Source: Escherichia coli
Lineage (GTDB): Bacteria > Pseudomonadota > Gammaproteobacteria > Enterobacterales > Enterobacteriaceae
Assembly (NCBI RefSeq): GCF_017348835.2
Contig: NZ_CP071375.1
DNA length: 64,000 nt
Strand: one strand, 5' to 3'
Part shown: positions 136 through 15,500 of the stretch, one piece after another
How positions within the stretch are numbered: position 1 is the stretch's first letter
How the letters are laid out: every line of letters starts with the position of its first letter
Notes under the pieces: generated by a model
What the model saw: only the letters and a program-made list of their open reading frames with translations
The model's database searches: none
Told to the model about the DNA's origin: nothing
Position numbers and translations under genes: made by a program

Positions 136-858
136 TTAAATTTTGTCACTAATATAGTTGCCGTGATCATCGATAATGGTCAGTTGCCAGCCATTCGCAT
201 TATTATTTTTTACACTAACATTCTGACTTTCTTGTGGTGCAATCATGATTGTTTCATAATTCACTTTGACGTTATTAGCCTTAACATCAGAAATCGTTAC
301 CCAATTTGGCGAGTCATTTTTTATGACTACGTTATTACCGCTACGACTCACTCGTAATTTTTTAAAAGTCGTTTTATTTACCGGAGCAATACCAGCAGGA
401 CGGTAAAACAACTTGATTCTGTTTTGCATGGCAAATTTTAACGCATTCTTTCCTTCATCTTCTGGGCTATTCGGTGGAATATCCAGAACATTAAGATAAA
501 AAATACTTTCCTTATTACTGGGTAATTTATTAGGCATGATTTTAATTTTTATTTGTTGCCCAGAATTGGCCGCTACTTTCACTACTGGTGGCGTTAACAT
601 GAAAGGAACCTGAATCTTTTCTGGCGGCAGAGACGTGTCGCCATCATCAATCCACGCCTGCATCAGCGAAGAGCGGTTTCCCTGATTCATCAGTTGTACC
701 ATGACCTCTTTCTGCTCTGCCGGGTAAATGATACGGGTCCCGAAAATAACCATTCCGGCATGCACGGGGAATATCATAGAAGAGATGAGTAAAGATAATA
801 ACCCTTTCATCTTAATGCCTCTTATATTTATGCTGGCCGCCATGAATATGGCGGCCAT
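136..858 (-). CDS. yehC: PapD-like periplasmic fimbrial chaperone
   Basis: 240 aa ORF. An internal start at 810 (MKGLLSLLISSMIFPVHAG signal peptide, AGAGG RBS 6 nt upstream) is the more likely true start; sits between fimbrial subunit and usher. Confidence 0.85.
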   Translation of the reverse strand: MAAIFMAASINIRGIKMKGLLSLLISSMIFPVHAGMVIFGTRIIYPAEQKEVMVQLMNQGNRSSLMQAWIDDGDTSLPPEKIQVPFMLTPPVVKVAANSGQQIKIKIMPNKLPSNKESIFYLNVLDIPPNSPEDEGKNALKFAMQNRIKLFYRPAGIAPVNKTTFKKLRVSRSGNNVVIKNDSPNWVTISDVKANNVKVNYETIMIAPQESQNVSVKNNNANGWQLTIIDDHGNYISDKI

Positions 859-897: not shown

Positions 898-1440
898 TTA
901 ATCCTGGGCAACACGCATAACCAATGAAGAGTTAACAGTACCAGATGCAACACCACTGTCAGTCAACTTCAGATATTTTGCCTTAAACGGTATTGCATAT
1001 TGTCCATCAGCAGTTTTATAACTTTCAATATTAAATGGTGCGGAAATATCCAGTACGTCACTGCTATCTCCCAAATAGAGATAGTATCCAACTGTGTCAT
1101 TACTACTGGATATTGCCTTATCATTACCAAGAATTTTCTCGTTGGTGATCAACGAAAGTTTTACGCCATCAATAGTCTTCGGACAAGTAATTTTCAGCAT
1201 ACTGCTGGTTACACCAACCGCGCCATCATAAGTTGAATATTTCGCTTTACCATCAAATACAGTGGTGGGTACAGTCGGCATATTAATACTGACTGAATCA
1301 CCGCCAGCGACAAATGTACATGGTGATTCAGCAATATTACCTTTAATGGTTAAAGTTCCGGTATCTACTTCAGCAGCGAAAATACCAGCACTCATAAATA
1401 CAGAAGATAAGACAGCGACAGCAATAATTGAATGTTTCAT
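898..1440 (-). CDS. yehD: Major fimbrial subunit of a cryptic chaperone-usher fimbria
   Basis: 180 aa ORF with signal peptide MKHSIIAVAVLSSVFMSAGIFA and a Cys pair typical of pilin subunits; first gene of the operon; AT-rich upstream region. Confidence 0.85.
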   Translation of the reverse strand: MKHSIIAVAVLSSVFMSAGIFAAEVDTGTLTIKGNIAESPCTFVAGGDSVSINMPTVPTTVFDGKAKYSTYDGAVGVTSSMLKITCPKTIDGVKLSLITNEKILGNDKAISSSNDTVGYYLYLGDSSDVLDISAPFNIESYKTADGQYAIPFKAKYLKLTDSGVASGTVNSSLVMRVAQD

Positions 1441-1664
1441 GATGCATTCCTTAATAAGTTTATTTTGTTTTGTTAAGAGTCTGTATCTCTTGGAAACAAA
1501 TTTCTCACATCAAAAAGGTTGCCGCAATGTAAACATATTGTTTTGTTGATTTAAAACAAATTAACTAATGCGATATAAATACAACAAATGATTCGCTATA
1601 ACAAACATTTTTGAAACTGATTAATTACCGTAAATTACCGTAAATAACATTTATGGGATGAATA

Positions 1665-1705
1665 AAAAAGCCAAAATCATTCATAGGAATGATTTTGGCT
1701 TTTTA
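1665..1705. terminator. Hairpin terminator downstream of yehE, upstream of the yehD promoter
   Basis: Perfect inverted repeat AAAAAGCCAAAATCATTC-ATAG-GAATGATTTTGGCTTTTT flanked by A/T runs on both sides. Confidence 0.7.
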
Positions 1706-1731
1706 AATATGCTTAAAACGGTGTTGGCAAA

Positions 1732-2013
1732 TTAATCGTAGCGATTTAACACGATTTTGCGTTTGTCGTTATTACCCACAGCTACCACTTCTGTCGTAAC
1801 GCCTTTTGCAGTAGAAGAAGCACGATAGTTGGTTTCAACTCGTTGTAACAACTGCCCACAACGTTGCTGAAGATGATTATTAACAACATCCATACTGCAT
1901 GTAGGGGAACTAATTCTGCCATTGATGGTTAATGTTGCAGTATCAGAAGAGAACGCGGGTGATGCTAGTCCATAAGCAAGAAAAACAGCTCCTGACAGCC
2001 AATACTTATTCAT
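1732..2013 (-). CDS. yehE: Small secreted protein of unknown function
   Basis: 93 aa ORF with N-terminal signal peptide MNKYWLSGAVFLAYGLASPAFS; position between apbC and the fimbrial genes. Confidence 0.8.
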   Translation of the reverse strand: MNKYWLSGAVFLAYGLASPAFSSDTATLTINGRISSPTCSMDVVNNHLQQRCGQLLQRVETNYRASSTAKGVTTEVVAVGNNDKRKIVLNRYD

Positions 2014-2274: not shown

Positions 2275-3384
2275 TTAGACCGCGCGGAAGGAAATCTCGC
2301 CTGGAATGACTTCACCCTGCCAGTAGAGCTGAGCTGCAACGCGGTCAGCCAGCTGGCGGTAGATAGCGGTAAATTCGCTCTCCGGACGGCTGATAACCGT
2401 TGGCGTGCCTTTATCGAGATCCTCACGTAAGGAGATGTGTAACGGCATCTGCCCCAGCAGCTGTGTATGGTATTTTTCAGCCAGTTTCTCTGCACCACCG
2501 GTACCGAAAATCGGTTCATGGTGACCACAGTTACTGCAAATATGCACACTCATGTTCTCGACAATACCGAGCACCGGAACCTCGACTTTCTCGAACATCA
2601 CAATGCCTTTTTTCGCATCGATCAACGCGATGTCCTGCGGGGTGGTGACCACAACTGCACCAGTTACTGGAATGTTTTGCGCCAGCGTCAATTGAATGTC
2701 ACCGGTGCCTGGCGGCATATCAAGCACCAGATAGTCGAGATCCGGCCACAAGGTTTCCTGCAACATCTGCATTAACGCCTTGCTCGCCATCGGTCCACGC
2801 CACACCATCGCATTGTCGTCAGTGACCAGATAACCAATTGAATTGGTTGCCAGGCCATGAGACATAATCGGTGCCATATGGGTACCGTCCGGCGAAGTTG
2901 GACGCTGATTTTCTGCGCCCAGCATGGTGGGAATTGATGGACCGTAGATATCGGCGTCCAGAATGCCGACTTTCGCCCCTTCCGCCGCCAGTGCCAGCGC
3001 CAGGTTTACCGCCGTGGAGGATTTACCCACGCCGCCTTTACCGGAACTGACCGCAATGATGTTCTTCACGCCATTAATACCCGGCTGATTCTTCACGCGT
3101 TTTAAGGTGGCGATATTGTGCGACAGTTTCCAGTCGATAGCTTTCGCCCCGGTGATACGCAGCAGTTCGGCGCTACATTGCTCTTTTAACTCTTCAAACG
3201 CGCTATGCCAGACGAATGGCATAACCAGTTCCACATGCAACGTGTCGTCCATCCAGGCGACATGGTGCAACGCTTTCAGCGTGGTGAGGTTATGCTTCAG
3301 GGTTGGGTGCTGAAAATTGGCCAGTGTCCCGGCGACCATTGCGCGCAAGGCTTCTGGTGATTTGGCCTGGGATTGTTCGTTCAT
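2275..3384 (-). CDS. apbC: Fe-S cluster carrier P-loop ATPase ApbC/Mrp
   Basis: ORF 2275..3414; start chosen at MNEQSQAKS (369 aa). P-loop SSGKGGVGKS and C-terminal CSNCGH motif; divergent from metG. Confidence 0.9.
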   Translation of the reverse strand: MNEQSQAKSPEALRAMVAGTLANFQHPTLKHNLTTLKALHHVAWMDDTLHVELVMPFVWHSAFEELKEQCSAELLRITGAKAIDWKLSHNIATLKRVKNQPGINGVKNIIAVSSGKGGVGKSSTAVNLALALAAEGAKVGILDADIYGPSIPTMLGAENQRPTSPDGTHMAPIMSHGLATNSIGYLVTDDNAMVWRGPMASKALMQMLQETLWPDLDYLVLDMPPGTGDIQLTLAQNIPVTGAVVVTTPQDIALIDAKKGIVMFEKVEVPVLGIVENMSVHICSNCGHHEPIFGTGGAEKLAEKYHTQLLGQMPLHISLREDLDKGTPTVISRPESEFTAIYRQLADRVAAQLYWQGEVIPGEISFRAV

Positions 3385-5689: not shown

Positions 5690-8600
5690 ATGAGACACTT
5701 TATCTATCAGGACGAAAAATCACATAAATTCTGGGCGGTTGAGCAACAGGATAATGAGCTTCATATTAGATGGGGTAAAGTCGGTACTAACGGGCAAAGT
5801 CAGATAAAAAGTTTTTCAGATGCTGCTGCAGCGGCAAAAGCGGAGCTTAAGCTGATCGCAGAGAAAACGAAAAAAGGCTATGTGGAAAATGCTTCAGCAA
5901 ACGTGCATATCTCCCCCATCACCAAAGCCACTCCTGAAGTTGAAACTTCCCCTGAGAGTAAAAACCAACGCCCGTGGCTGGCTGATGATGCAGTTATTCC
6001 GGTAACTGACGATATTAACCGATTTGCTTTTCCTCATCGCTCTCGCCCCAGAGAGATCAATTATCTGCGCAAAGACGGTGAGATATGGAAGCGTATTGCA
6101 GATAACACCAGGGCATATGATCCCGACAACAATTACCGCTCTTATCCTGAAAACTGGCAGCAGGCTTTTGCTGAGTTACAAAGGCGAATTCTGGATAATC
6201 AACAGACAGGGAGTGCGCAATCTGATGCAGCATTGCTCTGGAGTTTTTGGAACTCTTACTCTGCAGATGAACTGGTCGATGACTTAGTCATTCGCTGTGG
6301 TCTGGAAAGCGCCGTTGAAATCGCCCTTTTTGCCCTTCAACTCAAATATAAACCAGTAAAAGGCGCAGTAACCACCATCATTCCACCTAATCACGAAGCA
6401 GAATCGCTACCTAGTTGGCATCAACGTCTATGTCATCATCTTTCACTCGCTTCAGAAGATGAGTGGCAACGCTGTGTAGATAAAGTACTCACCGCCATTC
6501 CGACGCTATCCCCCGCACGGCAACCTTTTGCGGCGCTACTGCTCCCTGAACGCCCGGATATCGCCCATGCTATAGCTCTACGCTATGCAGACCAAAACGT
6601 CCCGGCGATCACCTGGTTAAGTATGATGGTAAGCGATGATGTTGCCCTGGCCATCCAGGAAATATATGGTTTCCCACCGCTATATAATGATTTCCGCAAA
6701 TATCTGGCTACGTTGCTGGCAAATAATGGAATGCGTGGTGTAAGCCGGATTCTTCTCAAGCTACCTGTCGACTATCCCGTAAAATACACGGACCTTTTCA
6801 CTCACATACACGCCAATGCTGAAGATCTTGTCAAATGGCTATGGAAAACGAATCACCCGGATGCGATTCAAATTCTGATCCTCGGTGTAAATGGCAAGAA
6901 AAAGCACCTGGAATACTTAAGCAAAGCCTGCCAAAAACATCCCGCTGCGGCTATTGCCGCTTATGCTACTTTGCTGGCAATACATGAAAATAATGAGTGG
7001 CGTAAAGCGCTTGTCAAACTGATTACTGCCACGCCAGAGTTAGTATGCGAGGTCATTCCCTGGGTTAATGCTAAGGCGGCAGGCATCTTATCTGAATGTC
7101 GTCCGCTGCCAGTAGCTGAAGAATGTGAATATGCCACTGTGGATATGTTGCCGGAGCTGCTTGTCGCTCCACCGTGGATAATAAATAAGAAAAAGAATGT
7201 CATACCCGTATTTGATTTACCGGTACTTCCCATTCCTGCCGTCACGGATATCACACCAGGAATTACAGAGTTAATCAGTCATACTGACATATCCAGATTC
7301 AGTGAAATCGCGCAATATCAGGCATCACAGCAAACCTTATTTACCGATCTGCCACTAATTGAAAAAGAAAGCTGGGAGACATCTTTCATTCCTTTTACAC
7401 CAGAACAACAAATCCTTTGGCAATTAGGTTTTAATGAATGGCTGCATTGCGAAAATGACTTACATGAAAAAAAATATATACCGCAAAGCGCTGTTGATGC
7501 CTTGTTGCGCTTTGATTTTCCAGCACTAAAAGCTGAGTTTGCGAAATATCACAACAATGCCAACAAAAGCTGGAATCTATCTGCGCTTTGTTACTTACCG
7601 GGACAACAGGCGATCTCATTTCTCAACCAAATAATCATTGAGGAGCGATATTCAGGTGAGAAAGAGATTCTGGCGGTTTTTGGTAGTACGGCCATTCCTG
7701 CGTTTATGACCTGCTTGCAACGAGATCATCAACGCCTGTGGATATTCACCCTTTTTATTGGAGCCAGTGAACTAGCCTTACCAATGGCGCAGCGGTTACA
7801 GAAAAAAATGGGTTACAAGGATGCCGTTAATTGGCTGGCAAATAACCCGCGCCATGCCGCCGCCGGGCTACTGCCTTTGGCGCTGGGCAAACCGTGCCAA
7901 AATCGGGAATATGCCCGCCAGGCACTCCTCCTGCTAGTGAAATTAAACCAGCGAGAAACGATTGAGGAAATCACCCAAGGATATAATCAACCTGATGTTT
8001 TAGCTGCGCTGGCAACATTATTTGATAGCGACCCACTGGAAGAATATCCTGCAAAAATCGCCCCACTGCCCGGCTTTTATCAGTTCCCCTTATGGCGCAG
8101 ACCTCGGCTTAAAAGTAACAACCTGCCTCTGCCAGATGACACTATGCGCCACCTCGGCACAATGTTGAGCTTTCCACGCGACATTACCTCCTACGCTGGG
8201 CTGGCGATCATCAAAGAGACCTTCACCCGCGAATCACTGGCTGACTTTGGCTGGGATCTCTACACGGCATGGACAGAAGCTGGCGCACCCGCAAAAGAGA
8301 ACTGGGCATTTACCTCGCTGGGGATTCTAGGCAATGACGACACCGCGCGTAAACTAACCCCGCTCATCCGCGCCTGGCCGGGTGAATCCCAGCATAAACG
8401 CGCGGTTTACGGGCTGGATGTGTTAGCCAGTATCGGTAGCGACATTGCGCTTATGTTGCTTAATGGCATTGCGCAAAAGATTAAATTCGTTGCATTACAG
8501 GAACATGCCAGCGACAGAATCAATATGGTCGCCGAAAATCGCGGACTGACAATGGCCGAACTGGAAGATCGCCTGGCGCCGGATTTAGGGCTTGATAGCA

Positions 8601-9490
8601 GTGGCTCGCTGATACTGGATTTCGGCCCCCGCAAATTCACCGTTGGTTTTGACGAAACCTTAAAACCTGTAGTGTGCGATGCAAACGGCAAAGTCCTGAA
8701 AGATTTACCTAAGCCAAACCAGAGCGATGATAAAACACTGGCAACTGACGCAGTTAATCTCTTCAAACAGTTGAAAAAAGATGTTCGTGCTATCGCCAGC
8801 CAGCAAATTACCCGTCTGGAACAGGCTATGTGCCAGCGCAGACGCTGGACGGCAGAGCAGTTCCGCCTGTTTCTGGTGGAGCATCCGCTGGTACGTCACT
8901 TAACCCGACGGCTGTTATGGGGAGTATATACTGAGGAAAACACGCTGATTGCCTGCTTCCGGGTCGCAGAAGATAGCACTTACAGCGATGCGCAGGAAGA
9001 GCTATTCACGTTACCAGCAGGAAACATCGGTATTCCGCATGTGCTGGAAATATCCCCTGAATCCGCCGCTGCATTCAGGCAAATTTACGCTGATTACGAA
9101 CTGCTTCCCCCTTTCCAACAGCTCGAGCGAGGTAGCTATCACCTTGCTGATAATGAACGTAATACTCACGAACTGACACGCTGGCAAGGACGGCTTTGCC
9201 AGGCCGGACGCATTGTCGGGCTGGAACGCCGAGGCTGGCAACGTCTGGAAGAAAGCGGCAGCGTTTATGCGATGCGCAAAACAACCCCTCATGGCGATCT
9301 CGAACTTGAAACGGAACCTTTTTCATTAATTTATGGTGAAACGGGGTATGGCGACCAGCTACCGGTTGAAAGCGTAAAAATCACCTCGCCAGATGATCGC
9401 TACGGTAAACAATCCTCACTCACTTTCTCCATGCTCGACGACATCACCGCCAGCGAGCTGATTAACGACATCGAATCACTGTTTGATTAA
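5690..9490 (+). CDS. molR: MolR-family giant protein, copy 1: N-terminal WGR-like module plus conserved C-terminal region (recalled as DUF4132); intact here
   Basis: 1266 aa uninterrupted ORF; N-terminus FIYQDEKSHKFWAVEQQDNELHIRWGKVGTNGQ looks like a WGR domain; C-terminal ~450 aa align with the next two ORFs. Confidence 0.85.
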   Translation: MRHFIYQDEKSHKFWAVEQQDNELHIRWGKVGTNGQSQIKSFSDAAAAAKAELKLIAEKTKKGYVENASANVHISPITKATPEVETSPESKNQRPWLADDAVIPVTDDINRFAFPHRSRPREINYLRKDGEIWKRIADNTRAYDPDNNYRSYPENWQQAFAELQRRILDNQQTGSAQSDAALLWSFWNSYSADELVDDLVIRCGLESAVEIALFALQLKYKPVKGAVTTIIPPNHEAESLPSWHQRLCHHLSLASEDEWQRCVDKVLTAIPTLSPARQPFAALLLPERPDIAHAIALRYADQNVPAITWLSMMVSDDVALAIQEIYGFPPLYNDFRKYLATLLANNGMRGVSRILLKLPVDYPVKYTDLFTHIHANAEDLVKWLWKTNHPDAIQILILGVNGKKKHLEYLSKACQKHPAAAIAAYATLLAIHENNEWRKALVKLITATPELVCEVIPWVNAKAAGILSECRPLPVAEECEYATVDMLPELLVAPPWIINKKKNVIPVFDLPVLPIPAVTDITPGITELISHTDISRFSEIAQYQASQQTLFTDLPLIEKESWETSFIPFTPEQQILWQLGFNEWLHCENDLHEKKYIPQSAVDALLRFDFPALKAEFAKYHNNANKSWNLSALCYLPGQQAISFLNQIIIEERYSGEKEILAVFGSTAIPAFMTCLQRDHQRLWIFTLFIGASELALPMAQRLQKKMGYKDAVNWLANNPRHAAAGLLPLALGKPCQNREYARQALLLLVKLNQRETIEEITQGYNQPDVLAALATLFDSDPLEEYPAKIAPLPGFYQFPLWRRPRLKSNNLPLPDDTMRHLGTMLSFPRDITSYAGLAIIKETFTRESLADFGWDLYTAWTEAGAPAKENWAFTSLGILGNDDTARKLTPLIRAWPGESQHKRAVYGLDVLASIGSDIALMLLNGIAQKIKFVALQEHASDRINMVAENRGLTMAELEDRLAPDLGLDSSGSLILDFGPRKFTVGFDETLKPVVCDANGKVLKDLPKPNQSDDKTLATDAVNLFKQLKKDVRAIASQQITRLEQAMCQRRRWTAEQFRLFLVEHPLVRHLTRRLLWGVYTEENTLIACFRVAEDSTYSDAQEELFTLPAGNIGIPHVLEISPESAAAFRQIYADYELLPPFQQLERGSYHLADNERNTHELTRWQGRLCQAGRIVGLERRGWQRLEESGSVYAMRKTTPHGDLELETEPFSLIYGETGYGDQLPVESVKITSPDDRYGKQSSLTFSMLDDITASELINDIESLFD

Positions 9491-12544: not shown

Positions 12545-15500
12545 ATGGACAAGGAATTACCGTGGCTGGCTGATAACGCCCAACTGGAACTGAAATATAA
12601 AAAGGGTAAAACACCACTCAGCCATCGCAATTGGCCGGGCGAACCAGTGCCTGTTATCACTGAAAGCATCATTCAGACACTGGGTGATGAATTGCTACAA
12701 AAAGCTGAGAAGAAAAAAAACATTGTCTGGCGTTATGAAAATTTTTCACTGGAGTGGCAGTCCGCCATCACGCAGGCCATCAACTTGATCGGCGAACACA
12801 AACCCTCAATCCCGGCCCGGACAATGGCGGCGCTAGCCTGTATCGCGCAAAATGACAGCCAACAGTTGCTCGACGAAATCGTCCAACAAGAGGGGCTGGA
12901 ATATGCGACTGAGGTGGTGATTGCACGCCAGTTTATTGCGCGGTGTTATGAGAGTGATCCTCTGGTAGTGACATTGCAGTATCAGGACGAGGATTATGGC
13001 TATGGTTATCGCTCAGAAACCTATAACGAATTCGATCTCCGACTGCGTAAGCATCTCTCTCTGGCAGAGGAAAGCTGCTGGCAGCGTTGCGCCGACAAAC
13101 TCATTGCCGCACTACCAGGAATAACCAAAGTTCGCCGCCCTTTTATTGCGCTGATCCTCCCGGAAAAACCAGAAATAGCCAATGAGTTGGTAGGCCTTGA
13201 ATGCCCGCGAACTCATTTTCATTCTAAGGAGTGGTTAAAAGTTGTTGCTAATGACCCCACAGCGGTGAGAAAACTCGAACACTACTGGAGCCAGGATATA
13301 TTTAGCGATCGAGAAGCCAGCTACATGTCGCATGAAAACCACTTCGGCTACGCGGCCTGCGCCTCCCTTTTGCGCGAACAAGGACTGGCAGCCGTTCCGC
13401 GCCTGGCAATGTATGCTCATAAAGAAGATTGCGGCAGTCTGCTGGTACAAATTAACCATCCGCAAGTCATCCGCACCTTGCTGTTAGTTGCTGATAAAAA
13501 CAAACCCAGCCTGCAACGTGTGGCTAAATACAGTAAAAACTTCCCCCATGCGACGCTCGCCGCACTGGCAGAACTGCTGGCGTTAAAAGAACCACCAGCC
13601 CGCCCTGGTTATCCAATCATCGAAGACAAAAAGCTGCCTGCACAGCAAAAAGCTCGAGATGAATACTGGCGTACGCTGTTACAAACGCTGATGGCATCGC
13701 AGCCACAACTGGCAGCAGAAGTGATGCCGTGGTTAAGTACTCAAGCCAGGGCAGTGCTGAAGAGTTATTTATCGGCACTGCCAAAACCGGTTATTGATGG
13801 CACCGATAACAGCAATCTGCCTGAAATCCTCGTTTCACCACCGTGGCGTAGTAAGAAAAAAATGACAGCTCCACGTCTTGATTTGGCACGGCTCGAATTA
13901 ACTCCGCAAGTTTACTGGCAACCAGGCGAACGAGAGAGGCTTGCCGCCACTGAGCCTGCCCGTTATTTCAGCACGGAATCTCTTGCGGAACGCATGGAAC
14001 AAAAAAGTGGACGAGTTGTATTACAGGAACTGGGTTTTGGGGATGATGTATGGCTGTTTTTGAATTATATACTCCCCGGAAAACTGGATGCTGCACGCAA
14101 TTCACTCATTGTTGAGTGGCATTACTACCAGGGGCGGGTTGAAGAGATCCTGAATGGCTGGAACTCCCCGGAAGCACAATTAGCAGAACAGGCGCTTCGC
14201 AGCGGTCACGTAGAAGCGTTAATTAACATATGGGAAAATGACAACTACTCACGTTATCGTCCGGAAAAGAGTGTCTGGAACCTGTATTTATTGGCACAGT
14301 TGCCGCGTGAGATGGCTTTGACCTTCTGGCTGCGTATCAATGAGAAAAAACATCTGTTCGCGGGTGAGGACTATTTTCTCAGTATCCTCGGATTGGATGC
14401 GCTACCAGGTCTGCTGTTGGCTTTTTCACATCGTCCAAAAGAAACATTTCCGTTAATTTTAAATTTTGGCGCAACAGAACTGGCCCTGCCTGTTGCCCGC
14501 GTCTGGCGACGTTTCGCGGTGCAGCGTGATCTGGCTCGCCAGTGGATTTTACAATGGCCGGAACATACGGCTACTGCACTTATCCCTCTTGTCTTCACCA
14601 AATCTAGCGATAAAAGCGAAGCTGCATTACTTGCCCTGCGTTTACTTTACGAACATGGGCATGGCGAATTGCTACAAACTGTAGCCAATCGTTGGCAGCG
14701 TACAGATCTATGGCCTGCCCTGGAACAATTACTTAAACAGAGTCCAATAGAGATTTACCCGGCACGCATTCCAAAAGCCCCTGATTTCTGGCATCCGCAA
14801 ATGTGGTCCAGGCCGCGCCTTATCACTAATAATCAAACTGTTACCGATGACGCTCTGGAAATTATCGGCGAAATGCTGCGCTTTACCCAGGGGGGACGTT
14901 TTTATAGCTGGCTGGAACAACTGAAAACGTTCTGCCAGCCACAAACGCTGGCAGCTTTTGCCTGGGATCTCTTCACTGCGTGGCAACAAGCTGGTGCCCC
15001 CGCAAAAGACAACTGGGCATTTCTGGCGTTAAGTCTCTTTGGTGACGAAAGCACGGCACGGGATCTGACGACACAGATCCTCGCCTGGCCACAAGAAGGC
15101 AAATCTGCCCGTGCTGTCAGCGGCCTGAACATCCTTACCCTGATGAATAATGATATGGCGCTGATACAGCTGCATCATATATCGCAACGGGCTAAATCCC
15201 GCCCCTTACGTGATAACGCGGCGGAATTTCTTCAGGTGGTCGCAGAAAATCGCGGGCTAAGCCAGGAAGAGCTAGCGGACAGATTAGTCCCAACCCTGGG
15301 CCTTGATGATCCGCAGGCGTTGAGTTTTGATTTTGGTCCCCGGCAGTTTACCGTTCGCTTCGATGAAAACCTCAACCCGGTTATCTTTGATCAGCAAAAC
15401 GTTCGCCAGAAAAGCGTTCCCCGGTTGCGCGCCGATGACGATCAACTGAAAGCGCCCGAGGCACTGGCCCGACTAAAAGGGCTAAAAAAAGATGCCACTC

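Follow-up and report, generated by a model that had tools for sequence, protein, structure and literature searches.

A tandem decamer upstream of the fimbrial gene yehD: a candidate CpxR operator whose copy number varies among Escherichia coli strains

Background

Operators for phosphorylated CpxR (CpxR~P), such as those of degP2, cpxP and motA and those of the pilus promoters pap, csgB/csgD and fimA, carry two direct GTAAA half-sites at a centre-to-centre spacing of 10 bp. The same two half-sites at the same spacing occur in a perfect tandem decamer upstream of yehD, the gene for the major subunit of the Yeh fimbriae, in a 64-kb stretch of Escherichia coli DNA from contig NZ_CP071375.1 (64,000 nucleotides, here called the window, whose coordinates are used throughout). 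As at the pilus operators, the position is upstream of a pilus major-subunit gene, and the sign of the response of yehD to loss of cpxR, a derepression, fits repression of the kind seen at pap and csg. At pap, CpxR~P binds the regulatory DNA and prevents switching to phase ON (PMC11316696), curated CpxR sites exist at csgB and csgD (in the 41-site set used below), and a CpxR peak has been found at the fimA promoter by chromatin immunoprecipitation with exonuclease treatment (ChIP-exo) (PMC7657598). Unlike the known CpxR operators, the yeh site, a candidate by sequence, has half-sites that stem from (or coincide with) a perfect tandem duplication and are identical by descent, and strains differ in how many copies of its box they have, several Escherichia lineages having none.

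Slipped-strand promoters offer a second comparison. The TA tract of Haemophilus influenzae hifA/hifB, the poly-C tract of Bordetella fim and the TAAA tract of Neisseria meningitidis nadA are likewise tandem repeats; they lie in promoters of fimbriae or adhesins and change in unit number by slippage. These tracts consist of many short units and switch at high frequency through -35/-10 spacing or operator phasing; the yeh repeat, unlike them, has two units of 10 bp, changes rarely and keeps the helical phase. The (TTTTGAT)n tract of Vibrio cholerae ctxAB also consists of direct repeats of strain-variable copy number, in a virulence-associated promoter within H-NS-silenced, AT-rich DNA; its heptads recruit transcription factors, and copy number has been examined against promoter activity (bioRxiv 10.1101/2021.05.14.444153). 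The ctx tract has more units, a shorter repeat and regulator binding that was previously shown, whereas the yeh repeat has one to three units and is known by its sequence.

Yeh belongs to the "cryptic" chaperone-usher fimbriae, whose natural inducing signals are poorly understood. The DNA upstream of yehD resembles that of the other cryptic chaperone-usher operons of K-12 (yad, elf/ycb and sfm) and the "promoter islands", with the same AT-richness, membership of the H-NS regulon, derepression by SlyA or BolA and poor laboratory expression. This likeness covers the whole spacer and not the decamer, and the H-NS data describe the K-12 allele, whereas the window carries a divergent, O157-type allele. 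As a whole, the spacer is an ordinary silenced promoter that has already been described. The decamer goes unmentioned in the studies of ArcA, FNR, CsrA, H-NS, SlyA, BolA and protein occupancy at yeh that are drawn on below; it adds the hypothesis of a copy-variable CpxR box, a detail of a known kind of regulation and not a new kind.

Results

The decamer and its CpxR-type box

Our preferred reading, to which we give a probability of roughly 0.45, is that the decamer is a slippage-generated, copy-variable candidate CpxR operator. It lies in the 291-bp spacer (1441-1731) between yehE, directly upstream, and yehD, directly downstream.

1623-1645, no strand: perfect tandem decamer AATTACCGTA, 2.3 copies (Tandem Repeats Finder, TRF; period 10, 100% match)
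1630-1644, plus strand: candidate CpxR~P operator GTAAATTACCGTAAA, two direct GTAAA half-sites 10 bp apart

A repeat search places the two full units of AATTACCGTA at 1623-1632 and 1633-1642. An earlier note on this DNA, made from the sequence alone, had called a tandem decamer here, and the TRF result bears it out; the coordinates given there for the repeat are off by a single base, a trivial matter, as the register ATTACCGTAA x2 reads the repeat at 1624-1643. Each unit holds a 4-1-4 palindrome, read as TTAC-C-GTAA or GTAA-A-TTAC. The repeat is intergenic, outside any reading frame, and a promoter scan finds no -35/-10 pair flanking it. It is the sole perfect tandem duplication of period 10 or more in the 64 kb (0.065 per window after dinucleotide shuffling), and 7.9% of shuffles of the 291-bp spacer hold some perfect duplication with a period of 7-30. 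Measured against chance, the decamer is unusual but not extreme.

A CpxR box has two direct pentamers with 5 (or 6) nt between them, and the published recognition sequence of CpxR is GTAAA-N5-GTAAA (PMC9600279). An exact copy occurs once in the window, where 0.09 would be expected, and in 0.3% of shuffles of the spacer. By a position-specific scoring matrix (PSSM) built from the 41 curated sites of PMC9600279, the box scores 17.2 bits, the best value in the 64 kb and 3.5 bits above the next (13.7); it is outscored by 8 of the 41 curated sites and so falls in their top quartile. The first 12 of its 15 nucleotides are identical to the degP2 CpxR site GTAAATTACCGTCAG. It is the only CpxR-like site (10 bits or more) in the spacer, and the spacer of the K-12 allele likewise has none other than its own. 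Counted from the yehD ATG, the centre of the box is at 197 bp upstream, in non-coding DNA past the yehE terminator. At the homologous position E. albertii scores 15.4 bits, with both TTTAC pentamers kept and the bases between them diverged, and K-12 scores 12.5 bits (a 9/10 box), which equals the median for known CpxR sites. Two overlapping 17-bit boxes are present in three-copy strains and none in one-copy strains. In strain B379 a T-to-C change falls within the second GTAAA of the repeat. The regulator-binding site that had been suggested earlier for the repeat can thus be specified, plausibly, as a candidate CpxR box.

Derepression of yehD in a K-12 cpxR knockout

In E. coli MG1655 under 5% ethanol, comparison of a cpxR knockout with the wild type by RNA sequencing (RNA-seq) gives yehD a log2 fold change of +3.43 (10.8-fold; adjusted p 5.6e-6) (Choudhary et al., PMC7657598). 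In the same contrast cpxP (-10.5), degP (-2.5) and htpX (-2.0) go down, and therefore the positive value denotes derepression. The contrast also shows an anaerobic shift (sdhC -3.4, cyoA -1.9, dmsA +4.40). The same shift is seen when a baeR knockout is compared with the same wild type (dmsA +4.25, dcuB +5.6, sdhC -2.7), and yehD is not among the differentially expressed genes of that knockout (PMC7657598). Because the baeR knockout leaves yehD unmoved despite the shared shift, the derepression of yehD is specific to cpxR.

An indirect route for the cpxR effect, through ArcA or FNR, is weakened by the same data: ArcA-repressed genes fall while yehD rises, and the shift in the baeR knockout leaves yehD where it was. 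The anaerobic shift cannot act on yehD via ArcA, since more active ArcA would be expected to reduce yehD; a route through FNR is conceivable. A text search of main texts in the literature found no link between Cpx and yeh, which appears only in supplementary RNA-seq tables.

Copy number and slippage

Copy number was assessed by probing 5,426 complete E. coli genomes with synthetic one-, two- and three-copy versions of 1585-1685, and also by direct unit counts in retrieved loci. About 370 of these genomes, mostly O157:H7, carry the window-type allele, and about 358 of the carriers (about 97%) have two copies. Three copies are found in eight carriers: O157:H7 strains TB21-1, HB6, UTME-1 and RIMD 0509939; the Swiss calf-farm isolates 33F4, 32F4 and 33E; and 17MR471. 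A single copy is found in one carrier, O157:H7 ATCC 43889. The comparison of copy number across strains, proposed earlier as a check, has therefore been run, with one, two and three copies all seen.

In a 40-kb comparison of single-nucleotide polymorphisms among ten O157 genomes, TB21-1, HB6 and UTME-1 have in common a private haplotype of six markers, while RIMD 0509939, with three copies, and ATCC 43889, with one, sit on the main haplotype beside two-copy strains. The flanks of 33F4 and 17MR471 are non-O157. There have been at least six independent one-unit events, E. whittamii included, and three of them fall within O157:H7. The decamer is a slippage hotspot, genuine but slow, since 97% of carriers keep two copies.

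Another slippage-prone repeat lies outside the window, in rcnA, to the left of yehA and some 6 kb from the spacer. This histidine-rich tract of hexanucleotides, (GACCAC)n, at about 13,900-13,945 of the retrieved O157:H7 loci, differs in length among ten O157:H7 genomes, whose rcnA coding sequences measure 846-870 nt.

The divergent yeh allele

The allele in the window is a minority one. Over 1300-2100, at least 95% identity is found in 376 of 5,413 matching genomes, and K-12 and about 5,000 others stand at about 81-82%. Against K-12 the identity is about 81.5% over yehD-yehE and 100-bp bins between 1 and 2000 give 66-93%; the divergent part extends from the window's left edge as far as about 2000 (the yehE start), after which identity rises abruptly to 99-100%. 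O55:H7 DEC5D has the K-12-type allele, unlike O157:H7. The window YehD is 100% identical to that of the unclassified Escherichia sp. E1V33, 97% to E. whittamii, 93% to E. albertii and 86-87% to common E. coli. Together these comparisons suggest that the yeh module is an old or introgressed allele and that yehE was co-inherited with yehDCB. The yehD homologues of Citrobacter (34-37% identity) were not used, their upstream DNA being too remote to align.

At the position of the repeat, K-12 has a degenerate decamer pair (ATTAATGTAG ATTTATGTAA), E. albertii has two units of which the first has diverged, and E. whittamii has exactly one unit. Over the stretch equivalent to about 1441-1760, O157:H7 TR01 is a mosaic, K-12-like in yehD and the repeat region and window-like in the yehE terminator and yehE. 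Its breakpoint, at about 1646-1660, lies between the repeat and the terminator hairpin, and therefore recombination junctions occur inside the yehE-yehD spacer. In two-copy O157:H7 strains NE1127 and Z1486 the usher gene yehB has an internal stop and carries a pseudogene annotation, and the operon is therefore decaying in some members of the O157:H7 clone.

Anatomy of the yehE-yehD spacer

The spacer has 27.5% G+C, against 50.9% for the whole window, and is the window-wide minimum for 291-bp stretches (only 0.09% of 291-bp windows are equally low); the strong AT-richness described earlier is real. An alignment of seven Escherichia lineages (the window type, E. whittamii, E. albertii, K-12 and three other species representatives) divides it into three parts.

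1661-1704, minus strand: yehE intrinsic terminator (arms 1687-1704 and 1665-1682, 4-nt loop, then TTTTTTATT on the minus strand)
1581-1660, no strand: fast-evolving AT-rich block with the repeat (mean pairwise identity 0.54-0.66 across the seven lineages)
1441-1580, minus strand: yehD promoter/5' leader core (mean pairwise identity 0.84-0.96 across the seven lineages)

The terminator has two 18-nt arms that are 100% complementary and a folding energy of -23.8 kcal/mol (z = -6.0). Across nine Escherichia sequences 98.1% of cells pair, with compensatory changes in four pairs, and the covariation is above 500 of 500 shuffles and above all slid registers. With a stable stem-loop, a U-tract, a place downstream of a stop codon and a conserved structure, the hairpin at 1661-1704 has what defines a Rho-independent terminator; a consensus terminator scanner missed it because the A/T stem extension consumes the T-tract. 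The conserved core is better conserved than the flanking coding DNA (66-87% for window against K-12 in 100-bp bins). A sigma-70 consensus scan found no promoter on the yehD strand in 1441-1731, the hand-made -35/-10 candidates are all weak, and an Rfam scan of the spacer and leader returned only one meaningless sub-threshold snoRNA match. The earlier note had taken the whole of these roughly 290 bp as control DNA of yehD; this does not hold for the distal 70 bp or so (1661-1731), which are the yehE terminator and its 3' flank, and the note had missed both the conserved core, with its ArcA site and FNR-like site about 80-110 bp from the repeat, and the low conservation of the block in which the repeat lies.

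Two side observations concern this spacer. Between the terminator and the yehE stop, at about 1709-1716, a 7-bp sequence, ATGCTTA, occurs once in the window and twice in the non-O157 strains 17MR471 and B379. In K-12 (b2108-b2112), a zraR knockout in LB (lysogeny broth) has log2 changes of -5.2 for yehE, -4.4 for yehD, -3.0 for yehC and -1.7 for yehA, and yehD and yehC also fall in a kdpE knockout (PMC7657598). The joint fall in the zraR knockout means that yehE and yehDCBA co-vary despite the terminator between them.

Known regulation of the conserved core

1514-1557, plus strand: ArcA~P operator, by homology to a K-12 ChIP-seq site; nearly invariant across alleles
1546-1559, plus strand: FNR-like site TTGATTTAAAACAA, 9/10 match to TTGAT-N4-ATCAA, overlapping the third ArcA direct repeat
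1447-1452, minus strand: Shine-Dalgarno sequence AAGGAA, the sole GGA beside the start codon

The ArcA operator comprises direct repeats at 11-bp spacing: TGTAAA (1528), TGTTTT (1539) and TTTAAA (1550). Its K-12 counterpart, AAGTTGCCGCAATGTAAACACATTGTTTTATTGATTTAAAACA at 2190321-2190363, was located by chromatin immunoprecipitation and sequencing (ChIP-seq), and yehDCBA is derepressed 5.4-fold in an arcA mutant (Park et al., PMC3798270 supplements); the same source enters "no TSS" (transcription start site) for yehD. YehD is also in the list from a genomic SELEX (systematic evolution of ligands by exponential enrichment) for ArcA (PMC6134199). An ArcA site at the decamer itself was considered and ruled out, the mapped site being at 1514-1557 with 11-bp spacing and the decamer having 10-bp spacing and CGTAAA half-sites. 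FNR binds at yehD in vivo in K-12 (PMC2690998), and we infer that it does so at 1546-1559; taken alone the motif is weak, as the window has four one-mismatch matches against 2.7 expected. The AAGGAA at 1447-1452 is likely the core of a CsrA site in the yehD leader. In enterohaemorrhagic E. coli (EHEC) 86-24, which has the window-type allele with two repeat copies, CsrA binds the yeh 5' untranslated region in a GG-dependent manner, and the native promoter transcribes the yeh locus as a single transcript (PMC11287998).

For the K-12 allele, yehDCBA belongs to the H-NS regulon and is derepressed 3.6-fold by SlyA overproduction (PMC5797941), H-NS binds the yehD/yehE spacer, a "promoter island" that overlaps predicted genomic islands (PMC3661553), and the spacer lies within a static protein-occupancy domain (PMC12266141). 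BolA overproduction is also published as inducing yehDCBA of that allele. The three cited K-12 studies support the view, taken in the earlier note, of an AT-rich, silenced and horizontally acquired fimbrial control region.

The candidate operator and its alternatives

How a CpxR operator at the decamer would work can be outlined from its sequence. Replication slippage made the decamer and is still adding and removing its 10-bp units in nature. The two-copy form spells a consensus operator for phosphorylated CpxR, and CpxR~P, a response regulator of the OmpR/PhoB type, would bind it as a head-to-tail dimer on two GTAAA half-sites one helical turn apart. Bound upstream of the yehD core promoter, it would help to keep the Yeh operon silent during envelope stress, in the way CpxR acts at pap and csg. 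Copy number would set the number of boxes (none for one copy, one for two, two overlapping for three) and might thereby alter the response, while the upstream DNA would keep its helical phase because the repeat unit equals one helical turn.

Several points weigh against such an operator. The RNA-seq data describe the K-12 allele with its 9/10 box and do not separate direct from indirect control, and of the operon only yehD passed the threshold, not yehC, yehB or yehA (PMC7657598). ChIP-exo of CpxR in K-12 has no peak at yehD, which the authors place among the no-peak genes (PMC7657598); that set is insensitive, since peaks are also missing at degP, spy, skp and htpX. The box is absent (below 7 bits) in three other Escherichia lineages, falls in the block of the spacer with the lowest conservation (0.54-0.66), and is not essential, because one-copy strains lack it and yet have yehD, yehC and yehB annotated as intact. 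The match was noticed after the repeat, so that its nominal p of 0.003 is to be discounted roughly 10- to 20-fold, for as many direct-repeat regulators as would have been recognised.

Much of this would be expected under the main rival, which we consider possible: the decamer is a neutral product of slippage, the CpxR match is coincidental and the effect of cpxR on K-12 yehD is indirect. The position of the repeat in the 80 bp of lowest conservation (identity 0.54-0.66), the persistence in nature of one-, two- and three-copy forms with the one-copy form tolerated, and the missing K-12 ChIP-exo peak all fit neutrality, as does the fact that several hundred genes are altered in the cpxR knockout. 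The unrelated 7-bp ATGCTTA duplication in the same spacer, together with the 7.9% of spacer shuffles that hold some duplication, indicates that small duplications are common here. It counts against neutrality that the duplicated unit is an exact CpxR half-site at the exact CpxR spacing, with spacer bases that match a known site and a score of 17.2 bits; that E. albertii keeps both TTTAC pentamers (15.4 bits) with diverged bases between them; and that the derepression of yehD is specific to cpxR by the baeR control. The retention of two copies by 97% of carriers despite recurrent slippage is, in addition, compatible with mild stabilising selection.

The repeat might instead be the site of a different protein, either another member of the OmpR/PhoB family (ArcA, OmpR, RstA or KdpE) on direct repeats of 10-11 bp or a dimer on the embedded palindromes. 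We regard this as unlikely. ArcA does repress yehDCBA directly, its strongest half-site here (TGTAAA) contains GTAAA, and yehD and yehC change in the kdpE knockout; the mapped ArcA site, however, is some 80-110 bp away and has 11-bp spacing, whereas the repeat has 10-bp spacing and CGTAAA in place of TGTTAA. As for the 4-1-4 palindrome in each unit, we know of no E. coli operator consensus that it fits (LacI/GalR, GntR, TyrR, HprR/CusR and SlyA were considered).

There is very little chance that the repeat is a slipped-strand contingency switch, whose changes in copy number would frequently flip Yeh fimbriae between on and off. In its favour, the tandem repeat precedes the gene of a fimbrial major subunit, and single units have been gained and lost repeatedly and independently, even in a clone as young as O157:H7. 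Known contingency tracts have many short units, whereas this repeat has one to three, with about 97% of carriers at exactly two; it also lies outside any reading frame and beside no -35/-10 pair, and a step of 10 bp keeps the helical phase, so that spacing-dependent switching is not expected. Of the "slipped-strand element" proposed earlier, the mutational process stands (at least six independent events), and the classical phase-variation switch falls: a maximum of three units, the position and a unit length of one helical turn rule it out. Equally improbable is a role of the repeat as a high-affinity site at which H-NS nucleates to silence the operon. For it speak that this is the most AT-rich DNA of the window, that its K-12 counterpart is H-NS-bound and silenced, and that CGTAAATT is loosely like the proU motif TCGATAAATT. 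Against it, that motif, with up to two mismatches, has no match in 1623-1645 and its sole regional match at 1730-1739, the block is poorly conserved, and H-NS occupancy of AT-rich DNA does not need the repeat.

The locus and its neighbours

Left edge of the window, minus strand: yehB, first 120 nt (open reading frame, ORF, list; annotation of PE164 and K-12 agrees)
136-810, minus strand: yehC (ORF list; annotation of PE164 and K-12 agrees)
898-1440, minus strand: yehD, major fimbrial subunit, first gene of yehDCBA (ORF; WP_000682830.1 in the identical strain PE164)
1732-2013, minus strand: yehE (DUF2574; ORF and PE164 annotation; same divergent allele block as yehD)
2275-3384, minus strand: apbC/mrp (ORF list; annotation of PE164 and K-12 agrees)
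Right of apbC/mrp, plus strand: metG (ORF list)

Between apbC and yehE, the sole consensus promoter-like site within 1350-2300 runs from 2131 to 2102 on the minus strand (TTGATC-18-TATCAT) and is followed by a terminator-like hairpin from 2094 to 2074 on the same strand; they may represent the promoter of yehE, the terminator of apbC or both. The stretch 2074-2131 is 99% identical to K-12 and lies just outside the divergent yeh block. Downstream of metG, at 5690-9490 on the plus strand, is an intact ORF of 1,266 amino acids, assigned to the DUF4132 family by orthologue annotation; the orthologue has an internal stop and is annotated as a pseudogene in all O157:H7 genomes that were examined, and non-O157 strain 33F4 has an intact copy. 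The top-scoring TRF tandem repeat of the window is at 48671-48721 (period 26, 1.9 copies, 84% match, score 72).

Implications

Should the repeat prove neutral, it would still be a small, recurrently mutating marker within the O157:H7 clone. The natural one-, two- and three-copy O157:H7 strains form a ready-made allelic series and thus a cheap test. If the CpxR operator is true, Yeh would join the envelope-stress circuit that controls pap, curli and type 1 pili, and the otherwise unexplained 10.8-fold derepression of yehD in the K-12 cpxR mutant would be explained. A further step, which we think rather unlikely, is that the decamer is a tunable operator, in which slippage heritably and reversibly resets the strength of the envelope-stress shut-off of Yeh in O157:H7 and its relatives. 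Yeh in EHEC O157:H7 affects gut colonisation and the expression of Shiga toxin and of the locus of enterocyte effacement (PMC11287998); if the operator is tunable in this way, virulence gene expression would also shift with the number of decamers.

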